This document shows, piece by piece, positions 12,866 to 24,485 of a stretch of 64,000 nucleotides of DNA. Every line of letters starts with the position of its first letter. The stretch's first letter is position 1. Under the pieces are notes generated by a model. That model saw only the letters and a program-made list of their open reading frames with translations. It was not told where the DNA came from and made no database searches. The stretch is from an uncultured Nitrososphaerales archaeon (lineage in GTDB: Archaea > Thermoproteota > Nitrososphaeria > Nitrososphaerales > Gagatemarchaeaceae): positions 1,753,758 through 1,817,757 of the forward strand of contig OY970160.1 of assembly GCA_963706445.1 (NCBI GenBank), in the 5' to 3' direction. The position numbers were made by a program, and so were the translations under genes.

Positions 12866-13663
12866 TCAGCTTTTCAGAGAGTTGGTAATCTGCTTGAGGA
12901 TTTTCTCGAAGCCGGACGTTTGAAGCAGGTTTCCAATCACGAGTATGTCGGCGCCTGCCTTGGCCGCTTTGCTCGCGATCTCGGGTGCTGTGATGCCACC
13001 GCCGACGATTACTAGTCCGTCATAGACTCGCCTCACGGCTCTGATTGTTTCTGGAGGAATGGGGTCGCCCGAGCCACTGCCCGCCTCCAGATAGATGGTT
13101 CTCATTCCGAGATATTTGGCGGCCAGAGCGTAGATCACTGCTAAGTTTGGCTTCGACGGCGGGATGCTGTTGACTTGGCCAATGAAACTGGTCGCGCTGC
13201 CGTTTCCGAAGACGAGGTAAGCCATCGGGACACTTTCGATCTTGCTCTTGTAGACCTCGATTGCTCCGAGGGCCTGGGCCCCTATGATGAAATAGGGATT
13301 TGTCGAGTTGAGAAGCGAACTGAAGAGGATGGCGTCGGCGAAGCGTGAGACGCCTGTGATATTCCCAGGGAAAAGAACCACGGGGACTTCTTGTGATTTG
13401 CTGTGACCAGATTGTGACCTAATATGATTCTTTACGGCTCTAACAACAGCGTCGAGCTTCCTTTGATTAGCCAAGGTGGATCCCCCAACTAGAATCAGCG
13501 AGGCCCCCGCCTGAACGGCTTTGGCCGCTGTGTCAGCGGCTTGCTTTGGAGAGAAGTCTTCCGGGTCGATCAGGGCGGCACAGATGGGGCCCTTCTTGGT
13601 CCTTTCATTGAGGTGTTTTTCGACTGGGCCGACTGCTATCAAATCATGCCCCGACTTTGGCAT
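12866..13663 (-). CDS. Geranylgeranylglyceryl phosphate synthase
   Basis: LIDPE, ILVGGST, LFPG, SLLNS, YLEAGSG, VGGGI motifs. Confidence 0.95.
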   Translation of the reverse strand: MPKSGHDLIAVGPVEKHLNERTKKGPICAALIDPEDFSPKQAADTAAKAVQAGASLILVGGSTLANQRKLDAVVRAVKNHIRSQSGHSKSQEVPVVLFPGNITGVSRFADAILFSSLLNSTNPYFIIGAQALGAIEVYKSKIESVPMAYLVFGNGSATSFIGQVNSIPPSKPNLAVIYALAAKYLGMRTIYLEAGSGSGDPIPPETIRAVRRVYDGLVIVGGGITAPEIASKAAKAGADILVIGNLLQTSGFEKILKQITNSLKS

Positions 13664-13904
13664 AATCGTCGACGAAGGTGTTGTAGACGTCTATGTCGGC
13701 CCGCTTGGTCGCGTACCGCATCTCTCTACCAGCATGGAGTGGACAGTTCGGGTTCCCACATGTGACTCGGAAGATGGTGTCTTGTGATGCCTCGTCCTGG
13801 TCAGATGTGATACGTATCGAGATCAAGCCACAGCGGGGACATGCAAAGACCTTTGGCAGCGTCCGGTGGACTACTCGAAGAGTTTTCTTACGTCTCCTAC
13901 CCAT
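13644..13904 (-). CDS. elf1: Transcription elongation factor Elf1
   Basis: MGRRRKK, LPKVFACPRCG, second Cys pair, IDVYNTFVD. Confidence 0.9.
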   Translation of the reverse strand: MGRRRKKTLRVVHRTLPKVFACPRCGLISIRITSDQDEASQDTIFRVTCGNPNCPLHAGREMRYATKRADIDVYNTFVDDYAKVGA

Positions 13905-14088
13905 CCTGTCTCGCCCGTTCGTCTGTTATCTGAACTAAATAAAGAGCGTCTCATGTAGCACTTTAGTCAATTCTGAGGATTTTGGTTATTTCGATTTAAA
14001 ATCACCGAATACTGATATTCTCTAACTGGTTCTTCGTATATATTGTAAAACAACTAGTGGTAACTCTTAATACAATATTGGCTCAACG

Positions 14089-14478
14089 ATGCCTGCTTTG
14101 AGCTTCCTCCAGAGACTTGTCAAACAGTCGTCGCTGACTCCGCGTCAGCTCGAGTCGTTATCTGCCTACATCAGGGTCGCGTCAGGTGAACTCAAGCTGA
14201 AAGAGGCAGCTTCAATCGCGTCTCAAGGAAAGACCAAAGGGACCAAGGAGAGACCACTTAGCATTGGATCATACTACCGGACGGTTTCCCAGGCTAGGTC
14301 AAACGTCAAGGAGGCCCTGGTTACCGTGGTCATTGCCATCTGGCTAGGACTGATCAAGAGTGAAGACGCCAGGCGCCTGTTCGAATTGGTGGGGGGTGGA
14401 GCGCGAGAGTTGTCGGATGAGGAGGCAGAGAGGTTCTTGCAACTCCTAGATGCTCTTGTACGCCGTATCGTAGTGTGA
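14089..14478 (+). CDS. Uncharacterised HTH protein
   Basis: SSLTPRQLE and SIGSYYRTVSQAR resemble a sigma4/LuxR-like HTH; AT-rich upstream region. Confidence 0.7.
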   Translation: MPALSFLQRLVKQSSLTPRQLESLSAYIRVASGELKLKEAASIASQGKTKGTKERPLSIGSYYRTVSQARSNVKEALVTVVIAIWLGLIKSEDARRLFELVGGGARELSDEEAERFLQLLDALVRRIVV

Positions 14479-14506
14479 CTGCATCACACTTATATCACGT
14501 TCTTGT

Positions 14507-15148
14507 GTGACCCGACGACAGATGATGCTGGCGGACGATTTGGTCACAGTTGCTCTCCTAGCGTCGGCCGCATTCTTCGTCGCTCTTTCTTTTGGGCTGA
14601 TGCTGAGATATAGGCAAGTCTCCCAGAGGATTACGACGTCCTCTGATCTTGGTCGGGACCTCTGGCAGGCGCTAGAGCAGAGAATGAGAAAACAGGACGA
14701 GCGCATCCTTGACATGATGGGTCGTCTGGAGGTAGTCCAGTCTCGGGTTATGGCGGCAGCGGTGGTGCAGGCCTCGGTCTCCGTCTCGCCTTCTCCTCCG
14801 GTCGTGCCTCGGTCCGTGGTTGAGGAAGAGGTGCACAGAGATGTGATGCCACAGGAAGCGGCTGTGGTCCAGCAAGAGTCACAGGCATCACGTGCAGAAT
14901 CACGTGAATCACAGGCGTTCCGAGATGGAATCCAATTGGATGAGACAAGGATGAAGGCGATTAAGTTGCTTGGTGCGAGTCCCAAGAACACGCGTCAGAT
15001 TACAGATGCGCTTGGTATGTCGCGGGAGCACACCGCGCGTATGATGAAAGAGTTGTTCGGCCTTGGCCTTGTGAAGCGGAATGATTCGACCAAACCTTTC
15101 GTCTACCAGCTAACCGATGAAGGGGATCGGTTATTGTCCGTGTCCTAA
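14507..15148 (+). CDS. Membrane-anchored coiled-coil plus C-terminal winged-helix protein
   Basis: N-terminal TM, heptad region, low-complexity linker, SREHTARMMKELF..GLV.R...KPFVYQLT winged helix. Confidence 0.8.
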   Translation: MTRRQMMLADDLVTVALLASAAFFVALSFGLMLRYRQVSQRITTSSDLGRDLWQALEQRMRKQDERILDMMGRLEVVQSRVMAAAVVQASVSVSPSPPVVPRSVVEEEVHRDVMPQEAAVVQQESQASRAESRESQAFRDGIQLDETRMKAIKLLGASPKNTRQITDALGMSREHTARMMKELFGLGLVKRNDSTKPFVYQLTDEGDRLLSVS

Positions 15149-15183: not shown

Positions 15184-15552
15184 CTATGGTGGCCCTGCCA
15201 CATTGACCACTTGTGGTCCCTTGCCGAGAAAGATATTGATGATTAATGCTTCTTCTCTGTCGGGGTTCTCGTCGCGGTGAACTAGGCCAACGGGGATGTG
15301 GAAGAAGTCTCCCGCCTTCGTCTCGATGTGTCCCTTCCCACCCTCCCCAAAATCGAATAGGAGCCGGCCTGCCAGAACGAAGCCGTAGACCTCCTTTTCC
15401 CCGTGGTGATGCCACCCCGATTTGTTCCCGCCTGCAATTCGAGAGCGCGGGAAAAGGACATCCCCTTTCTCGAATGCGACGTCTCTTGTAATGCCTTCTG
15501 TGATTCCGCCCCTCTTCATTTCGTCGATTCTGATGGCTTCGATTGCGCTCAT
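15184..15552 (-). CDS. Cupin-domain protein
   Basis: GWHHHGE..E motif 1 and GDFFHIP.GLVH motif 2. Confidence 0.88.
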   Translation of the reverse strand: MSAIEAIRIDEMKRGGITEGITRDVAFEKGDVLFPRSRIAGGNKSGWHHHGEKEVYGFVLAGRLLFDFGEGGKGHIETKAGDFFHIPVGLVHRDENPDREEALIINIFLGKGPQVVNVAGPP

Positions 15553-15643
15553 GGTCCTGGAGCCTGGTGCTCGGTATATAGCCATGGGAATCGGTGGTGC
15601 CTAGGGCCAAATGGATATGTAATGCTGCGGGGGCGCCCAGCAT

Positions 15644-16549
15644 GTGTCCTCCGGTACAAGCATAACTCAAGAGTTGGGTCTGGGCGATGTGATTTCGAGG
15701 ACCTTCGAGCTCTACCGGCGGAACTTTGCGAAATACTTCGTCCTATTCGTTGTTGTTGAGGCAATAATCGGCGTCGTCAGCACCCTCGCAAGGGGGGCTT
15801 TTCCTCTTCCTACGCTGCCTGCCAATCCGACGAATCAGCAGGTCATCGATTGGGCGCCCGGTTTCTTCGGTACTCTGGTCGTGTATGTGGGCATAATCGG
15901 AATTGTGTCTTTGGTCGTTGGTACTATTGCTGCTGCTGGTACGATAAGGATGGCGTCGGAAGAGATCGAGGGCAGGCCAATCGGGCTTGGAGAAGCAGTC
16001 TCTTTTGCTGTTCGCAAGATGGTTTGGGTCTGGGTTCTTGGGTTAGTTGTTGGAATAATCGTTGGCCTGGGTTTGATTGCGCTGGTTGTCCCAGGGATAA
16101 TACTAGCCATCATGTTCTCAATGGCTCTGCCGTCTCTTCTCATAGAAAATACTGGGATCCTAGGGAGTATGAGTAGGAGCCGCGAGCTGGTGGGGCACAG
16201 GTGGGGGAAGACCTTCGCTACTTTCCTAGTCCTCGGCATAATAGTAGTGGTAATTGCCATAGTTCTCAGTCTGGTAGCCGCGGCTTTCGGGAGCGCCAGC
16301 ACGCTGGTCAGCGATGTTCTGTCGGCGTTCTACCAGCCGATTCTCCCTGTAGCTTCGGTGGTCTACTTCTACTCCAACAGGGCAAGGATAACCCCGACTC
16401 AGGCCGGGATGGGCGTGGGTCAGGGACCGGTGGGCCCCACAGCGATGCCAGCCCTTGGGATGAAGTTCTGTCCGAACTGTGGGACCCAGTTGGTCTCTTC
16501 GGCGACCTTCTGCTCGATGTGTGGAGCTAAGCAGCCGGTCCAGACCTGA
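15644..16549 (+). CDS. Multi-TM membrane protein with C-terminal zinc ribbon
   Basis: About 6 TM, S..RS.ELV.G.W motif, FCPNCG..FCSMCG. Confidence 0.8.
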   Translation: MSSGTSITQELGLGDVISRTFELYRRNFAKYFVLFVVVEAIIGVVSTLARGAFPLPTLPANPTNQQVIDWAPGFFGTLVVYVGIIGIVSLVVGTIAAAGTIRMASEEIEGRPIGLGEAVSFAVRKMVWVWVLGLVVGIIVGLGLIALVVPGIILAIMFSMALPSLLIENTGILGSMSRSRELVGHRWGKTFATFLVLGIIVVVIAIVLSLVAAAFGSASTLVSDVLSAFYQPILPVASVVYFYSNRARITPTQAGMGVGQGPVGPTAMPALGMKFCPNCGTQLVSSATFCSMCGAKQPVQT

Positions 16550-16554
16550 GGTTG

Positions 16555-17145
16555 TTAGTCGCCGGTTCTGGAAAGTAGTTTCTCCTTCACTTCCGGCCAC
16601 TTGCTTGCTATGATCGAGTAGACCATCGAGTCGCGGAGTGTGCCGTCCGGTCTAATCTTGTCGCTTCTCAGCTTCCCCTCGAGCTTGGCTCCCAGCTTAG
16701 CGATGGCTCGCTGAGAGTGGAGGTTGTTCGAGTCTGTGGTGAACTGGACCCTGACCGCGCCCCAGTCTTCGAAGGCGTGTTTGAGGAGGAGGTACTTGCA
16801 TTCCGGGTTGACATTGGTCCCCTGAACTTTTGAAGCATACCACGTCGAACCGATTTCCAGGTGTTTGTGTTCAGGTGCGATTTGGAAGTAAGAGGTGCTC
16901 CCAACGACCAAGCCGTCCTGTTTTGTCCGCACTACGAACGCGTAGCCCTCGCCCCTCTCCTCGGCTTTGAGCCCGTATTCGATCCGCCTCTCGACGTCCT
17001 CCTTGGTGCGAAGAGGCTTGAGGAACCAGCCCCAGTCGAGCTGCTGCGCGGCAGAGTAAAGGGCGTCGGCGTGTTCCTTTCTTAGGGGCTCAAGGCGCAC
17101 TACGTTCCCTTCAAGGACACATGGACCTAGTTCCGTTGCTGACAC
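16555..17145 (-). CDS. GNAT acetyltransferase, RimJ/RimL type
   Basis: VRLEPL, LEIGSTW, N..SQRAI.KLG...EG.LR; start set at GTG 17145. Confidence 0.9.
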   Translation of the reverse strand: MSATELGPCVLEGNVVRLEPLRKEHADALYSAAQQLDWGWFLKPLRTKEDVERRIEYGLKAEERGEGYAFVVRTKQDGLVVGSTSYFQIAPEHKHLEIGSTWYASKVQGTNVNPECKYLLLKHAFEDWGAVRVQFTTDSNNLHSQRAIAKLGAKLEGKLRSDKIRPDGTLRDSMVYSIIASKWPEVKEKLLSRTGD

Positions 17146-17327
17146 CCTCCCACCCCCGCTTTTCCTTTCTTTCCACTCCAAGAAGCTCCCATAGGTAGAA
17201 CAATCTTACGTAAGTAAAGAAGCCCGTTCTCGGTATGCAGTCTTTGGTGGATATGCCTTGGGGTCTAGAAGCGGGCTCCTTTTGTTGGTGATCGGTGCGG
17301 GCCAAGCACGATCAAACGGGGAAACCG

Positions 17328-17483
17328 ACTCCAGTGGAAAGGGTGGGGTGGGGGTGAGAAGTGAACACAGGTGAAGGGCAACCAGGTCCAGGCGGCTACT
17401 GCACCCCTGTGTTTCCACTGGAACCTGTCCAGGCCCTAATGCCGTGAAGCGCCAGAATCCAACCCCTTTGTTTCCATTGGAAC
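17328..17483. other. Probable replication origin oriC with three ORB boxes
   Basis: ORB1 (+) ACTCCAGTGGAAAGGGTGGGGTGGGGG 17328-17354; ORB2 (-) GTTCCAGTGGAAACACAGGGG 17404-17424; ORB3 (-) GTTCCAATGGAAACAAAGGGG 17463-17483; match the Orc1/Cdc6 ORB consensus with G-strings; intergenic; near DP2, cdc6 and DP1. Confidence 0.88.
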
Positions 17484-17637
17484 CCATCCAACGCCCGCCG
17501 TAATCACCATGTTGTGAACTTCAGTGAACAGCCACGCCGCTATCAATCCGTTGTCAAACTATCTGATACCACAGTTCACAAGTTCACACCAGACACGGCT
17601 TTATCGGGGCTGGCGGCCACGGGCGGGGGCCACAGCC

Positions 17638-18036
17638 TTGCGCAAACGGATTAGAATCGAGCTGGAGGACGAGGAAGGGACGAAGTACACACTCGCGCTC
17701 GAAGGCGTCGTCTCCAGGGACAAACTCATGAAGGCCATGGACATGCTGGAAGTCATGGATGTCCCATTGGAGCACTCCCCCAAGGCCCCAGACCAGGGGA
17801 CCTTCTTTGGCAAAGTTCAAACGCTATTGGAAACCACGTTTGCAGCCGGCGATTTCTCGTCATCCGACGTCGCCCGCGAGTTCGAGGACAAGTATAGCCA
17901 GCCGGTGAAGCTGAGCACGATTTCCACCTACTTGGCCCGCCTGGCGGACAAGCAGTACATCAAGCGGGAGCGGTTCGGTAACTCCTGGGTATACCGAAGG
18001 GTCTACCTGAAGCCGACCCAAGTTGCTGAAAGGTAA
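17638..18036 (+). CDS. Origin-adjacent winged-helix protein
   Basis: TTG start 17638; FSSSDV..EFED.Y..PVKLSTISTYLARL...I.R.R.G..W.Y winged helix. Confidence 0.8.
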   Translation: MRKRIRIELEDEEGTKYTLALEGVVSRDKLMKAMDMLEVMDVPLEHSPKAPDQGTFFGKVQTLLETTFAAGDFSSSDVAREFEDKYSQPVKLSTISTYLARLADKQYIKRERFGNSWVYRRVYLKPTQVAER

Positions 18037-18087: not shown

Positions 18088-18360
18088 TCACTCTTTCTGA
18101 GGAACCAACGAATTGACCAGGGCGTAGGCCCTAATGAAATCATACGCCCTCGGGGTCATCATATAGCTGACCCCCTCCCCCGAACTCTGGGTCACGAGCA
18201 GGCCCGCCTTGATCAAGAGGCCGAGATACTTCTTCGTCCTGTCCATAGGGGTGTTCGAAGCATAGGAGATGTGGGTTATCCTGCCGGCCCCGCCATAGGA
18301 ATCGATGGCGTTGAGGATCGTGTTGTAGATGTCCAGTTTGGAGCGTTTGACTTTCCTCAT
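18088..18360 (-). CDS. Small winged-helix transcriptional regulator
   Basis: KRSKLDIY..IL, ITHI.Y.SN, YL..L...GLL, Y..TP pattern. Confidence 0.85.
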   Translation of the reverse strand: MRKVKRSKLDIYNTILNAIDSYGGAGRITHISYASNTPMDRTKKYLGLLIKAGLLVTQSSGEGVSYMMTPRAYDFIRAYALVNSLVPQKE

Positions 18361-19571
18361 AGGGGCGGACCCGGCAGGCTGGACACCTTCTCAGGCTGGG
18401 ATGACAAATGGACGTTCCTCCCAATCCTAACATCATTGGTGTACAACAGCCTTCCGGCAATCCGGCAGCTGTCCCCGACCTCGGCGTTCGACGCATAGAT
18501 ACTCCCGACACTGCAGGACTCGCCGACCCTGACATCCTCTGCGTACACGTCCTCAACGGAGGAGCCGCTCTCTATCCGAATCTTCTCGCCGACCATCGGC
18601 CCGGTCACCCTGCCGTGCCTGCCCACAGAAACAAACGGTGCCTTGACCCCCTTGCCTGTGACCATGCTCCTCCCGACCTTAACGGCGTCGTGCGCCCTCA
18701 CCACATCGGCCTGAAGGTCTCCGCCCACGTCAATCGACCCCGCCTCGAGTTTCCCTCCGACCCGCGCCTCCCCTCCGACCGTCAGCCTGTCCGACAGGGT
18801 AAGGTCGTGCTGTACCTCAAGGACCCCTCCAACCCTCACGCTCTTTCCGATGCCAGAATCAAGCCGAAGTTTACCACCCACGTCCAGGTCCTCGAACTTC
18901 AATGGGCCCTCGCTTTCCATGGTCCCCCCTACCCTGGCGTCCTGCAGCGTGCCCTTCGCCACACGGGCGGTCCCGCCTACGTCGAGGTCCTCTATCGTGG
19001 CTTCGACAGTTATTGCGACCGTCCCCCCAACTTTGACGTCTTCTGCCTCTATACGCTCTGCCTTCAGGGTCCCTCCCACCTTCACGTCTTCGCACTTCAT
19101 TTCCTTGACTTCGATTGTCCCTCCTACCATGACGTCCTCGCCGGTGATCTTCCCCGCTGCCCTGAGCACCCCTCCGACATGGGCATCTTCGACTTCGGCG
19201 TCCCCCACAAACTCAGCCTCCCCGCCCACACGCAAATCCTCTATCTTGCTCTTCCCTCCGACCTTCAGCGACCGGGGTATGTCGACGGACTCGGAGTTCA
19301 GGTTCCCGCCAACTTCAAGACTAGCGCCGTCATCGAGGTGGATGTCCTCTGCCTCCAAGTCGCCTTCGATGGTCAGGGTCCCATCTCCCTTGATGTCCTC
19401 GGCCTTCAGGTTGCCCTTGACCACGCCCCTATGCCTGACGACGACCGCGCCTTTGACTTCGACCGTCCCTCCATCCGCTCCGACCGTGCCACCATCGATG
19501 AGCAAATCCCCGTCGACCACTGACATCGTCGCGGACTGTCCCCGATCAACTCTGGCAGTGAACCCGCTCAT
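18357..19571 (-). CDS. Long beta-helix, polymer-forming cytoskeletal (bactofilin-like) protein
   Basis: Many (E/D)D+.VGG.+ repeats across about 400 aa; ATG at 19571; 4-nt overlap with downstream regulator. Confidence 0.72.
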   Translation of the reverse strand: MSGFTARVDRGQSATMSVVDGDLLIDGGTVGADGGTVEVKGAVVVRHRGVVKGNLKAEDIKGDGTLTIEGDLEAEDIHLDDGASLEVGGNLNSESVDIPRSLKVGGKSKIEDLRVGGEAEFVGDAEVEDAHVGGVLRAAGKITGEDVMVGGTIEVKEMKCEDVKVGGTLKAERIEAEDVKVGGTVAITVEATIEDLDVGGTARVAKGTLQDARVGGTMESEGPLKFEDLDVGGKLRLDSGIGKSVRVGGVLEVQHDLTLSDRLTVGGEARVGGKLEAGSIDVGGDLQADVVRAHDAVKVGRSMVTGKGVKAPFVSVGRHGRVTGPMVGEKIRIESGSSVEDVYAEDVRVGESCSVGSIYASNAEVGDSCRIAGRLLYTNDVRIGRNVHLSSQPEKVSSLPGPPL

Positions 19572-19671
19572 GGACTCACCGTGGCCCTGGCCTCGATATA
19601 TAGCGACCTCACGTGAGGTGATTACCAAGCGTGCCCTGAGTATAATTGGAGGACGCCGACTCTTCGCTACC

Positions 19672-19767
19672 ATGAGCGAAGAACAGACGAAGGAAGCGCG
19701 CGAAGCCGCCCGACAGACCTACGAGGTGGCGAAGTACGCCTTCATCCAGAGAGCAAGAATCCGCTGA
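19672..19767 (+). CDS. Putative 31-aa small protein
   Basis: MSEEQTKEAREAARQTYEVAKYAFIQRARIR; TATAAT about 26-31 nt upstream; fills the intergenic gap. Confidence 0.45.
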   Translation: MSEEQTKEAREAARQTYEVAKYAFIQRARIR

Positions 19768-23274: not shown

Positions 23275-23292
23275 GTTTCCACTGTTTCCAGT
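23275..23292. promoter_or_regulatory. Mini-ORB elements at the cdc6 start
   Basis: GTTTCCACTG (23275-23284) is identical to the ORB2 core, followed by GTTTCCAGT. Confidence 0.55.
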
Positions 23293-24485
23293 TGTCCGAC
23301 GGCATAGACGAAATCTTCCGCAGAGCGAAGGAGGGGAAGCCCCTCTTCATCAACAGGGACGCCCTCAGCCCAGACTATGTCCCGGCCCGCCTTCCCTTCC
23401 GCGACTCCCAGACGAACCAGGTGGCGCAGATACTCGCCCCAATACTGAGAGGCTCGAAGCCGTCCAACCTCCTGCTCTATGGGAAGACAGGCACAGGCAA
23501 GACGGCCGTTACGAACTACGTGCTTTCGAAACTCAAGGCGGAGGCCAACAACCCGAACCTAGTCCTGGCATATGTCAACACCCGACTCGCAGACGGCGAG
23601 TACAGGACTCTGGCCGATTTCGCAAGGTCCCTGGACCTCAAGAAGGAGAAGCAGATTCCGCTCACGGGGCTCGCCATAGGCGAGGTGGTCGACCGCATAT
23701 CAGAGAACATCAAATCGAACAAGAAGAAAGTGGTCCTCGTGCTAGACGAAATCGATTACCTGGTCAAGCTCTTCGGGGACGACATCCTCTACTCTTTCAC
23801 AAGATCTGGCGAGAAGTTGTCCCCGGGCTTCCTGGCCATCGTCGGAATCTCGAACGACCTCAAGTTCAAGGAGGGCCTCGACCCGAGAGTCCTCAGCAGC
23901 CTAAGCGAGGAAGAGCTGGTCTTCCCTCCATACTCTGTCGAGGAGCTCAGAGAGATACTTACAGAACGGGCGAGGGTGGCGTTCATGCCTTCTGTCGCCT
24001 CTCCCGCGGCCATCAACCTTTGCGCAGCCATGGCAGGGTCGGAGCACGGAGACGCCAGACGGGCCATCGACCTGCTCCGGATCGCAGGAGAGGTCGCCGA
24101 GCGCGAGGGCCTAAAGCAGATCGACGAATCCTGCATCAGAAAGGCGTCAGACAAGATGGAGGTCGACAGGGTGGACGAAGCCATCCAGTCCTTGCCCGTC
24201 CAGAACAAGGCCATCCTCGCCGCGGTGTCGAGGTTCGACGGAGGAACGAACACCGGGGAGCTCTATCTGGCATACGCGAACCTTTGCAAGAGGATGGGGA
24301 TCGAGACCCTGACCCAGAGGCGCCTGAGCGGGATACTAGGGGACCTCGACCTACTGGGCCTGGTGGAGGCCTCAGTGGTCAGCAAGGGGAGGCGCGGGCG
24401 GACGAAGAGGATCCAACTCCTGATCGGGAAGGACACCCTCGAGAAGACTCTGTCAGAGGACCCCGCCTTCGGGGCGGCTGCCTAG
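23292..24485 (+). CDS. cdc6: Orc1/Cdc6 replication initiator
   Basis: L.PDYVP..LPFR, YGKTGTGKT, VLDEID, FPPYS, GDARRAIDLL, C-terminal winged helix GRRGRT. Confidence 0.97.
   Translation: MSDGIDEIFRRAKEGKPLFINRDALSPDYVPARLPFRDSQTNQVAQILAPILRGSKPSNLLLYGKTGTGKTAVTNYVLSKLKAEANNPNLVLAYVNTRLADGEYRTLADFARSLDLKKEKQIPLTGLAIGEVVDRISENIKSNKKKVVLVLDEIDYLVKLFGDDILYSFTRSGEKLSPGFLAIVGISNDLKFKEGLDPRVLSSLSEEELVFPPYSVEELREILTERARVAFMPSVASPAAINLCAAMAGSEHGDARRAIDLLRIAGEVAEREGLKQIDESCIRKASDKMEVDRVDEAIQSLPVQNKAILAAVSRFDGGTNTGELYLAYANLCKRMGIETLTQRRLSGILGDLDLLGLVEASVVSKGRRGRTKRIQLLIGKDTLEKTLSEDPAFGAAA

Follow-up and report, generated by a model that had tools for sequence, protein, structure and literature searches.

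The window analyzed here is a 64,000-nucleotide stretch of the genome of an uncultured Nitrososphaerales archaeon (GenBank assembly GCA_963706445.1, contig OY970160.1, positions 1,753,758 to 1,817,757), and the subject of the analysis is an array of the hexamer TGTGAY (or its complement RTCACA) that surrounds two small genes, here termed A and B, near the predicted replication origin. The 14 exact hexamers listed in an earlier note on this DNA were all recovered within 1.56 kb, at window positions 13355, 13392, 13402, 13413, 13761, 13783, 13806, 14474, 14483, 14506, 14543, 14842, 14878, and 14908. These sites form four clusters. Cluster 1 (13355..13418, four sites) lies inside the gene for GGGP synthase (GGGPS, PcrB family; 12866..13663, minus strand), and cluster 2 (13761..13811, three sites spaced by 22-23 bp) lies inside Elf1 (13644..13904, minus strand). 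Cluster 3 (14472..14548, four sites and one CGTGAT) covers the stop codon of gene A, the A-B gap, and the start of gene B, and is the best conserved of the four; cluster 4 (14842..14913, three sites and two CGTGAT) falls in the DNA that encodes a variable linker of B modeled with low confidence. Gene A (14089..14478, plus strand) encodes 129 residues, with a sigma4/LuxR/Tfx-like helix-turn-helix (HTH) followed by C-terminal helices, while gene B (14522..15148, plus strand) encodes 208 residues arranged as a transmembrane (TM) helix, a coiled coil, a linker, and a winged helix; their orthologues in Nitrosopumilus maritimus are ABX13692.1 and ABX13693.1, respectively. The start of B had been placed at GTG 14507, but the starts of its homologues make ATG 14522 the most likely one, and site 14506 is therefore intergenic. 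The palindrome at 14472-14490, which has 7-bp arms and overlaps the stop codon of A, is exact in this genome, and the bias toward one strand to its left is real; neither is conserved, as the palindrome is found in only two families and appears incidental, and the two strands are used equally overall (383/400).

The genome is a single contig of 1.82 Mb, all of which was covered by a background scan for the word. TGTGAY was detected at 1,039 sites (0.57 per kb), and the densest 1,600-bp window in the genome was the present locus with 14 sites, followed by a runner-up with 8; the locus is the unique TGTGAY peak. When compared with 6,144 comparable degenerate hexamers, this peak ranked fifth (Poisson 1e-11.9), and the competing top peaks fell in Thr/Val/Ser-rich open reading frames (ORFs) at 668-728 kb. 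The long Thr/Ser/Gly/Val-rich ORFs of that region (G000:C1:668000-728000) probably encode surface proteins and give rise to codon-driven hexamer peaks. A TGTGAY excess at 650-750 kb was likewise driven by the codons of Thr/Val-rich ORFs. Relaxing the word to YGTGAY removed the uniqueness of the peak at the locus (17 vs 16). Genome-wide, TGTGAY was neither over- nor underrepresented, its intergenic occurrence was at chance level, and its density was flat at more than 4.5 kb from oriC; a broad origin-proximal scatter of sites in the style of ram, ricS, or parS was not found in this genome. Similarly, a search for a wider regulon revealed no clustered TGTGAY elsewhere and no intergenic enrichment, although single weak sites could escape such a scan. 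Of the 11 triple-site matches in one complete genome of Bathyarchaeia type, 10 were located at the A-B locus.

The earlier note had allowed that codon usage might account for the density. This explanation was excluded by a synonymous null, in which the protein sequence was held fixed, synonymous codons were redrawn, and TGTGAY was recounted. In the present genome, four sites were observed in B (0.55 expected), three in Elf1 (0.17 expected), and five in GGGPS (0.49 expected). The excess was also detected (i) in six genomes of the genus, with observed/expected counts of 21/3.4 for B, 17/1.6 for Elf1, and 25/3.0 for GGGPS; (ii) in other families of the order, with 34/7.9 for B and 26/7.2 for GGGPS; and (iii) in hypF where it neighbors B in families lacking A (31 vs 15.4 expected). 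Gene A displayed merely a small excess, at its stop, and none was apparent in cdc6 or in the origin-side gene wH170. Because the synonymous-codon shuffles were exceeded, the TGTGAY sites are selected as DNA, even within the coding sequences of GGGPS, Elf1, and B. The host proteins differ at these positions: sites 13392, 13402, and 13413 sit in a loop insertion of 10-11 residues in GGGPS that is restricted to the genus among the aligned sequences, and the cluster 2 sites occupy an Elf1 loop about 5 residues longer than that of most relatives.

Single-base variants gave the consensus (T>C)GTGA(T>C), in which changes to the G, G, and A positions are not tolerated. Counted by family, the favored spacings were direct repeats at 10-12 and 21-23 bp and abutting inverted pairs at 6 bp, the latter in 15 families. 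A 7-bp spacing is frequent in Bathyarchaeia. Several candidate units of the array were rejected, namely the palindrome with its N5 spacer (two families only), the CRP dimer spacing TGTGA-N6-TCACA (no family), and the geometry of the archaeal TGM element (one family). A Shine-Dalgarno origin of the sites was rejected as well, since the Shine-Dalgarno-like word GGTGAT was at 0.7x and both strands were equally used. Elsewhere in the sample, the gene for PolD DP2 was seen to contain an additional cluster, about 3 kb away from A (L032:6472-6500, genome G016), and in genome G211 (L099:3700-11200) the A-B junction and its sites are duplicated several times around hypF at 74-89% identity; the spread of clusters across 7 kb in the latter was not retained as a case of locus-level selection, as the local duplications explain it.

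Conservation was examined in a phylum sample of 301 genomes. Across the families of Nitrososphaerales, the order DP2-GGGPS-Elf1-A-B-wH170-ORBs-cdc6-DP1 (ORBs, origin recognition boxes; DP1 and DP2, the PolD genes) was found to be preserved, apart from local losses and relocations. All three small genes (ABX13692/3/5) are present in N. maritimus, together with 16 sites in 3.3 kb. Between the end of A and that of B, 107 sites were counted in 19 genomes against 9.9 expected, while seven control words ranged from 0.4 to 2.1x. Bathyarchaeia-type genomes displayed the same layout, with clusters that were denser and intergenic. The array extends over about 2-2.5 kb and in Nitrososphaerales has a sharp origin-side end at the stop codon of B, after which a different array, of TGTGAA, begins. 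In most genomes that carry B, the gene adjoins wH170, the ORBs, and cdc6. Thus, the linkage to oriC/cdc6 and the motif enrichment foreseen for relatives were both found, and from these genome comparisons the array, both genes, and their position on the side of the predicted oriC and cdc6 recur across Nitrososphaerales and Bathyarchaeia. Neither A nor B was found in several whole families of the sample.

The architecture proposed for B, a TM helix, coiled coil, and winged helix with the N-terminus out and the C-terminus in, was supported. The TM helix corresponds to residues 10-28, is preceded by about nine residues and followed by positive charge, and leaves no ectodomain; none of 74 orthologues has a second TM helix. 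In the structure model, an unbroken helix/coiled coil reaches residue 86 and is joined by a flexible linker of low confidence to the winged helix (residues 132-208). The TM-to-helix distance ranges from 56 to 219 residues among orthologues. Given a single TM helix, no ectodomain, and this variable length, the layout fits a spacer arm and not a sensor. Within the winged helix, R168, E169, H170, R173, R186, and Y195 are invariant. The B profile matched Vfr/CAP weakly over 30 ungapped columns (E 0.04-0.2), and in a register counted along this weak match the R-E-x-x-x-R of B (R168, E169, R173) aligns with Arg180, Glu181, and Arg185 of CRP, the residues that read TGTGA (PMC2677863). A profile limited to the winged HTH (wHTH) of B failed to recover CRP at E < 0.01. 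By fold, the domain is closest to MarR/ArsR/PadR (Z 11-13), with AspA and TubR among the tied matches; RacA and RicO were absent from the matches listed, which are MarR/ArsR/PadR winged helices. Because of the MarR/ArsR/PadR-like fold and the lack of CRP dimer spacing, the likeness to CRP is probably convergent. No other protein with an R-E-x-x-x-R triad helix was found in the present genome.

The membrane anchor of B is not universal. B carries a TM helix in 26 families and lacks one in 13 others; among the latter, f2, f48, and all eight families without A keep the array. With a TM-free B in these ten array-bearing families, the predicted membrane anchoring is a lineage feature and not part of the general core. 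The membrane tether suggested in the earlier note may thus apply in the present lineage, where B has a TM helix, but does not hold in general. In some Bathyarchaeia, a winged-helix gene of about 93 codons located right after DP2 (L091:14459-14740, L099:16041-16322) was also observed; its product weakly resembles the domain of B and is without the R-E-H-x-x-R helix.

Which of the two proteins reads the array was judged from families that have lost one of them. As related genomes are not independent samples, the argument rests on reciprocal losses and not on P-values, and the windows for site density differed slightly (A ± 1.5 kb for the A-bearing set; 2 kb before to 0.3 kb after B for the B set). 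The winged helix of B was found in 169 of the 301 genomes and A in 154, each essentially single-copy. Four families have A without detectable B; two carry the name Bathyarchaeia and two Nitrososphaerota, with Calditenuis among the latter. They fall at three distinct points of the A tree, and their site density was 0.1-0.9 per kb, although the conserved helix of A was unchanged. Conversely, B without detectable A occurs in eight families (Verstraetearchaeota, Culexarchaeum, Culexmicrobium, and Nezhaarchaeales), where 2.0-6.0 sites per kb were detected around a soluble B, usually beside wH170 and the ORBs and partly inside hypF. The median for the 26 families with a TM-bearing B was 2.9 sites per kb. 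The array was absent in family f22, where the helix arginine is K or P (0.5 per kb), and in family f20, where the helix is altered. Because the array tracks B and not A, and because the helix triad matches the TGTGA-reading residues of CRP, B is very probably the reader of the array, as judged from sequence comparison. As a separate observation, families f22, f29, and f20 (L083, L087, and L082) share a TM-less B with a helix that is altered or weakly supported and little or no array, and no replacement motif was evident among hexamers at these loci.

The suggestion that A and B act as a pair on the array was not upheld, as A appears from these losses to be a conserved neighbor uncoupled from the array in both directions, with an upstream motif of its own. 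The word ATACAA lies upstream of A (14070..14075, plus strand), and the motif (G/T)ATACAA (window 14040-14075) is enriched also where B is missing; it is a candidate site or operator for A, or a promoter element. The fold match of A to sigma4/LuxR/Tfx-like domains (Z 5-7) was not decisive, and sequence searches of the PDB returned no significant relatives. A sigma-70 promoter scan gave hits at chance level. In two peat metatranscriptomes, RNA contigs were found over Elf1 and GGGPS and none over A or B.

On the origin side, three ORBs mark the predicted oriC (17330..17490), which was assigned by ORB search and by the extreme of the cumulative GC skew at window position ~16900 (G000:1770653). 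The cumulative G-C skew is at a maximum here, not a minimum, the inverse of the usual bacterial pattern. A second array, (T)GTGAA (17361..17587, five copies here), lies between the ORBs and wH170, and in the phylum sample TGTGAA was counted 261 times between these landmarks against 21 expected. The third conserved gene, wH170 (17524..18036, plus strand; probable start TTG 17638; ABX13695.1 in N. maritimus), encodes a BlaI/CopY-like winged helix and is nearly always positioned between B and the ORBs; its product is a candidate reader of the TGTGAA array. Both wH170 and its array persist without B. In most relatives orc1/cdc6 (23292..24485, plus strand) is next to wH170 and the ORBs, unlike here, where further inserted genes open a gap of 5.8 kb between oriC and cdc6. 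Inserted genes for a cupin, a zinc-ribbon membrane protein, and a GNAT protein (15184-17181) also separate B from wH170/oriC here, and the array has remained next to B. Beside oriC, a gene of about 400 codons encoding VGG repeats (bactofilin-like) overlaps a small winged-helix gene (18088-19673); the VGG-repeat gene was not in the conserved synteny examined.

When compared with known systems, B is reminiscent of RicO of Staphylococcus aureus (bioRxiv 10.64898/2026.03.06.710092), RocS of Streptococcus, and RacA of Bacillus, which likewise combine a DNA-binding domain, a coiled coil, and a membrane anchor. RicO also binds specific origin-proximal sites (ricS), one of them at its own gene, and works without ParA. 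Counter to these proteins, B has the opposite domain order, is anchored by a true TM helix and not an amphipathic helix, and carries a MarR-like winged helix rather than a RacA-type HTH, and no homology was detected among the fold matches listed; moreover, its array is a 6-bp word in one ~2-kb block, whereas ricS comprises nine 18-bp sites over ~700 kb. Plasmid centromere proteins offer a second parallel, as omega with the parS of pSM19035 (PMC9499535), AspA of pNOB8 (PMC5120986), and TubR act on short direct or inverted repeats beside the gene of the reader and autoregulate. The omega heptad WATCACW overlaps the TGTGAY word, and AspA and TubR are winged helices, while omega is a ribbon-helix-helix unlike B. 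The B module differs from these in being chromosomal, having no adjacent NTPase, and having noncontiguous, often intragenic sites. As predicted for B, SegAB of Sulfolobales (PMC11381335, PMC5120986) provides site-specific binding near its own gene in archaea and is a proposed centromere; however, the B module has no SegA/ParA partner, and its sites are not palindromes upstream of an ATPase gene. The locus does have repeated origin-proximal cis sites, a feature of ParABS and SegAB. ParB_N gave no match in A or B, with matches elsewhere in the genome, and SegB homology was not directly searched. CRP/Vfr (PMC2677863) shares the R-E-x-x-x-R helix and the TGTGA half-site, yet B has no cNMP domain and the likeness is limited to ~30 residues. 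TrmBL1/Tgr with its TGM element TATCAC-N5-GTGATA (PMC4158304) is an archaeal winged helix with a related half-site, yet B has no sugar-binding domain and no detected regulon, and its TrmB match was below the cut-off and confined to the wHTH. Finally, ArnR-type membrane regulators resemble TM-bearing B in joining a TM helix and a DNA-binding domain in one chain. By these membership features, the module is outside ParABS, SegAB, CRP, and TrmB.

Because B is single-copy and deeply conserved and has its only clustered sites around its own gene by the origin, it looks more like a centromere-binding protein than a regulator. We consider it about an even call that B and its array form an undescribed centromere-like handle on the origin, membrane-tethered in this lineage. 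In such a mechanism, B would read (T/C)GTGAY half-sites sequence-specifically, with the array as its only clustered target, resulting in a centromere-like nucleoprotein patch of about 2 kb on one flank of oriC. B may oligomerize via its coiled coil, and winged-helix heads on a long flexible linker could bind half-sites whichever way these point and without strict spacing. Because a 6-bp word is too common alone, specificity would have to come from 10-20 sites together, with selection keeping them inside whatever genes lie there. The complex may mark the origin region and organize it so that it can be positioned or segregated. The N-terminal TM helix found in Nitrososphaeria and Bathyarchaeia would make B a direct membrane tether there, while the soluble B of Methanomethylicia-type genomes would depend on a partner or on an amphipathic end; a likely side effect would be that B autoregulates. 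More tentatively, and at somewhat worse than even chances, B and the array may be an ancient ParA-independent chromosomal centromere or origin anchor of single-origin PolD-type TACK archaea (Nitrososphaeria including ammonia oxidizers, Bathyarchaeia, and Methanomethylicia), with sites written into neighboring coding sequences so as to lengthen housekeeping proteins, the TM helix gained or lost by lineage, and wH170 with its array as part of the same origin-organizing module.

Several findings weigh against a centromere-like role. The binding, localization, and segregation role of B are predictions from sequence, and its CRP match is weak, with a fold nearer MarR/ArsR/PadR. A ParA/SegA motor, which the earlier note had not seen in the window, had no full match in the genome either: the sole result of a genome-wide AAA_31 search was an N-terminal match of 48 residues, within an ORF of 360 aa located 800 kb away, and no such motor was found within the conserved neighborhood. 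SMC is present in this genome and does not track B across the sample. The TM helix is missing from ten array-bearing families, B has been lost in several lineages, and the ~2-kb extent of the array is small beside that of the ricS sites. In the Caldarchaeales-type families f25 and f31, A-B lies 15-150 kb from cdc6-1, and family f29 is an exception in that it keeps the triad yet has a weak array (1.1 per kb). A role for B as an SMC loader was also considered and rejected, as the SMC hinge was uncorrelated with B (SMC occurs without B in f35 and f57, and in f23, f25, f40, and f42 B was found and SMC was not). The Methanomethylicia-type genomes searched, and most of the Caldarchaeales-type ones, carry B and the array, and no SMC hinge was found in them.

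Operators usually need far fewer than 10-20 sites, and the number at this locus counts against B as a transcription factor, bound to the membrane in some lineages in the manner of ArnR or ToxR, with the clusters as looping or roadblock operators for B, A, and the divergent Elf1-GGGPS-PolD operon. This alternative is unlikely, though it accounts well for the best-conserved cluster lying at the B start and A stop, for a MarR/ArsR regulator fold, and for an array that moves with B when B leaves the origin. Clusters also flank A on both sides, even in families f30 and f39 (L088, L092), where A is inverted relative to B, and Thermoproteota commonly have single-pass membrane regulators (PMC10269533). 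However, the divergent promoter region between A and Elf1 has zero TGTGAY sites in the present genome, no regulon of clustered sites was found elsewhere, there is no sensor domain outside the membrane, and the site-bearing neighbors vary by lineage (GGGPS/Elf1, hypF, or intergenic DNA), with B the only conserved target.

The deep synteny with the ORBs, cdc6, and both PolD genes raises another alternative, that B on the array controls initiation by sequestering or licensing oriC, perhaps with wH170 and the TGTGAA array, and that the TM form couples firing to the state of the membrane; SeqA and CtrA are models for such origin sequestration and licensing. The TGTGAY and TGTGAA arrays abut at a sharp boundary, soluble forms of B directly adjoin wH170 and the ORBs, and N. 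maritimus has a single origin (PMC4010727). Against this, the ORB region, wH170, and cdc6 of Nitrososphaerales are without TGTGAY sites, the three inserted genes put the array 2.4-4 kb from the ORBs here, and the distance from cdc6-1 is far greater in f25 and f31, so that we regard control of firing as rather improbable. It is very unlikely that A, wH170, or some other protein is the reader, or that the array arose as a side product of codon choice, Shine-Dalgarno words, or overlapping starts and stops: at the A-B junction, sites do coincide with TGA and with GTG/ATG codons, and clusters flank A, itself an HTH protein, yet the GGTGAT count, the equal strands, and the synonymous null speak against an artifact, and the unchanged helix of A where the array is gone, the persistence of wH170 and its own array without B, and the lack of a second triad-helix protein in this genome speak against another reader.

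No published description of the module was found by locus tags, accessions, or topic in a search whose coverage excluded subscription journals, and reviews on archaeal segregation do not mention such a module. Archaeal chromosome segregation is largely open (PMC7617429, PMC5120986), and SegAB, the best-studied archaeal system, has no ParA-type counterpart in this genome. Overall, the module is real and conserved and apparently undescribed in print, and its function is one that we infer. It also illustrates clearly how cis sites shape protein loops. Even if its role is in replication control or autoregulation, B and its array would still be an origin-side, class-spanning pair of protein and DNA of which no description was found. 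The analysis provides a named handle for testing, consisting of one protein, three residues, and a 6-bp site, and the question is directly testable in N. maritimus, which is cultured and monoploid and has one origin and the whole module. The module is a good candidate for the handle by which these archaea may position or separate their chromosomes.

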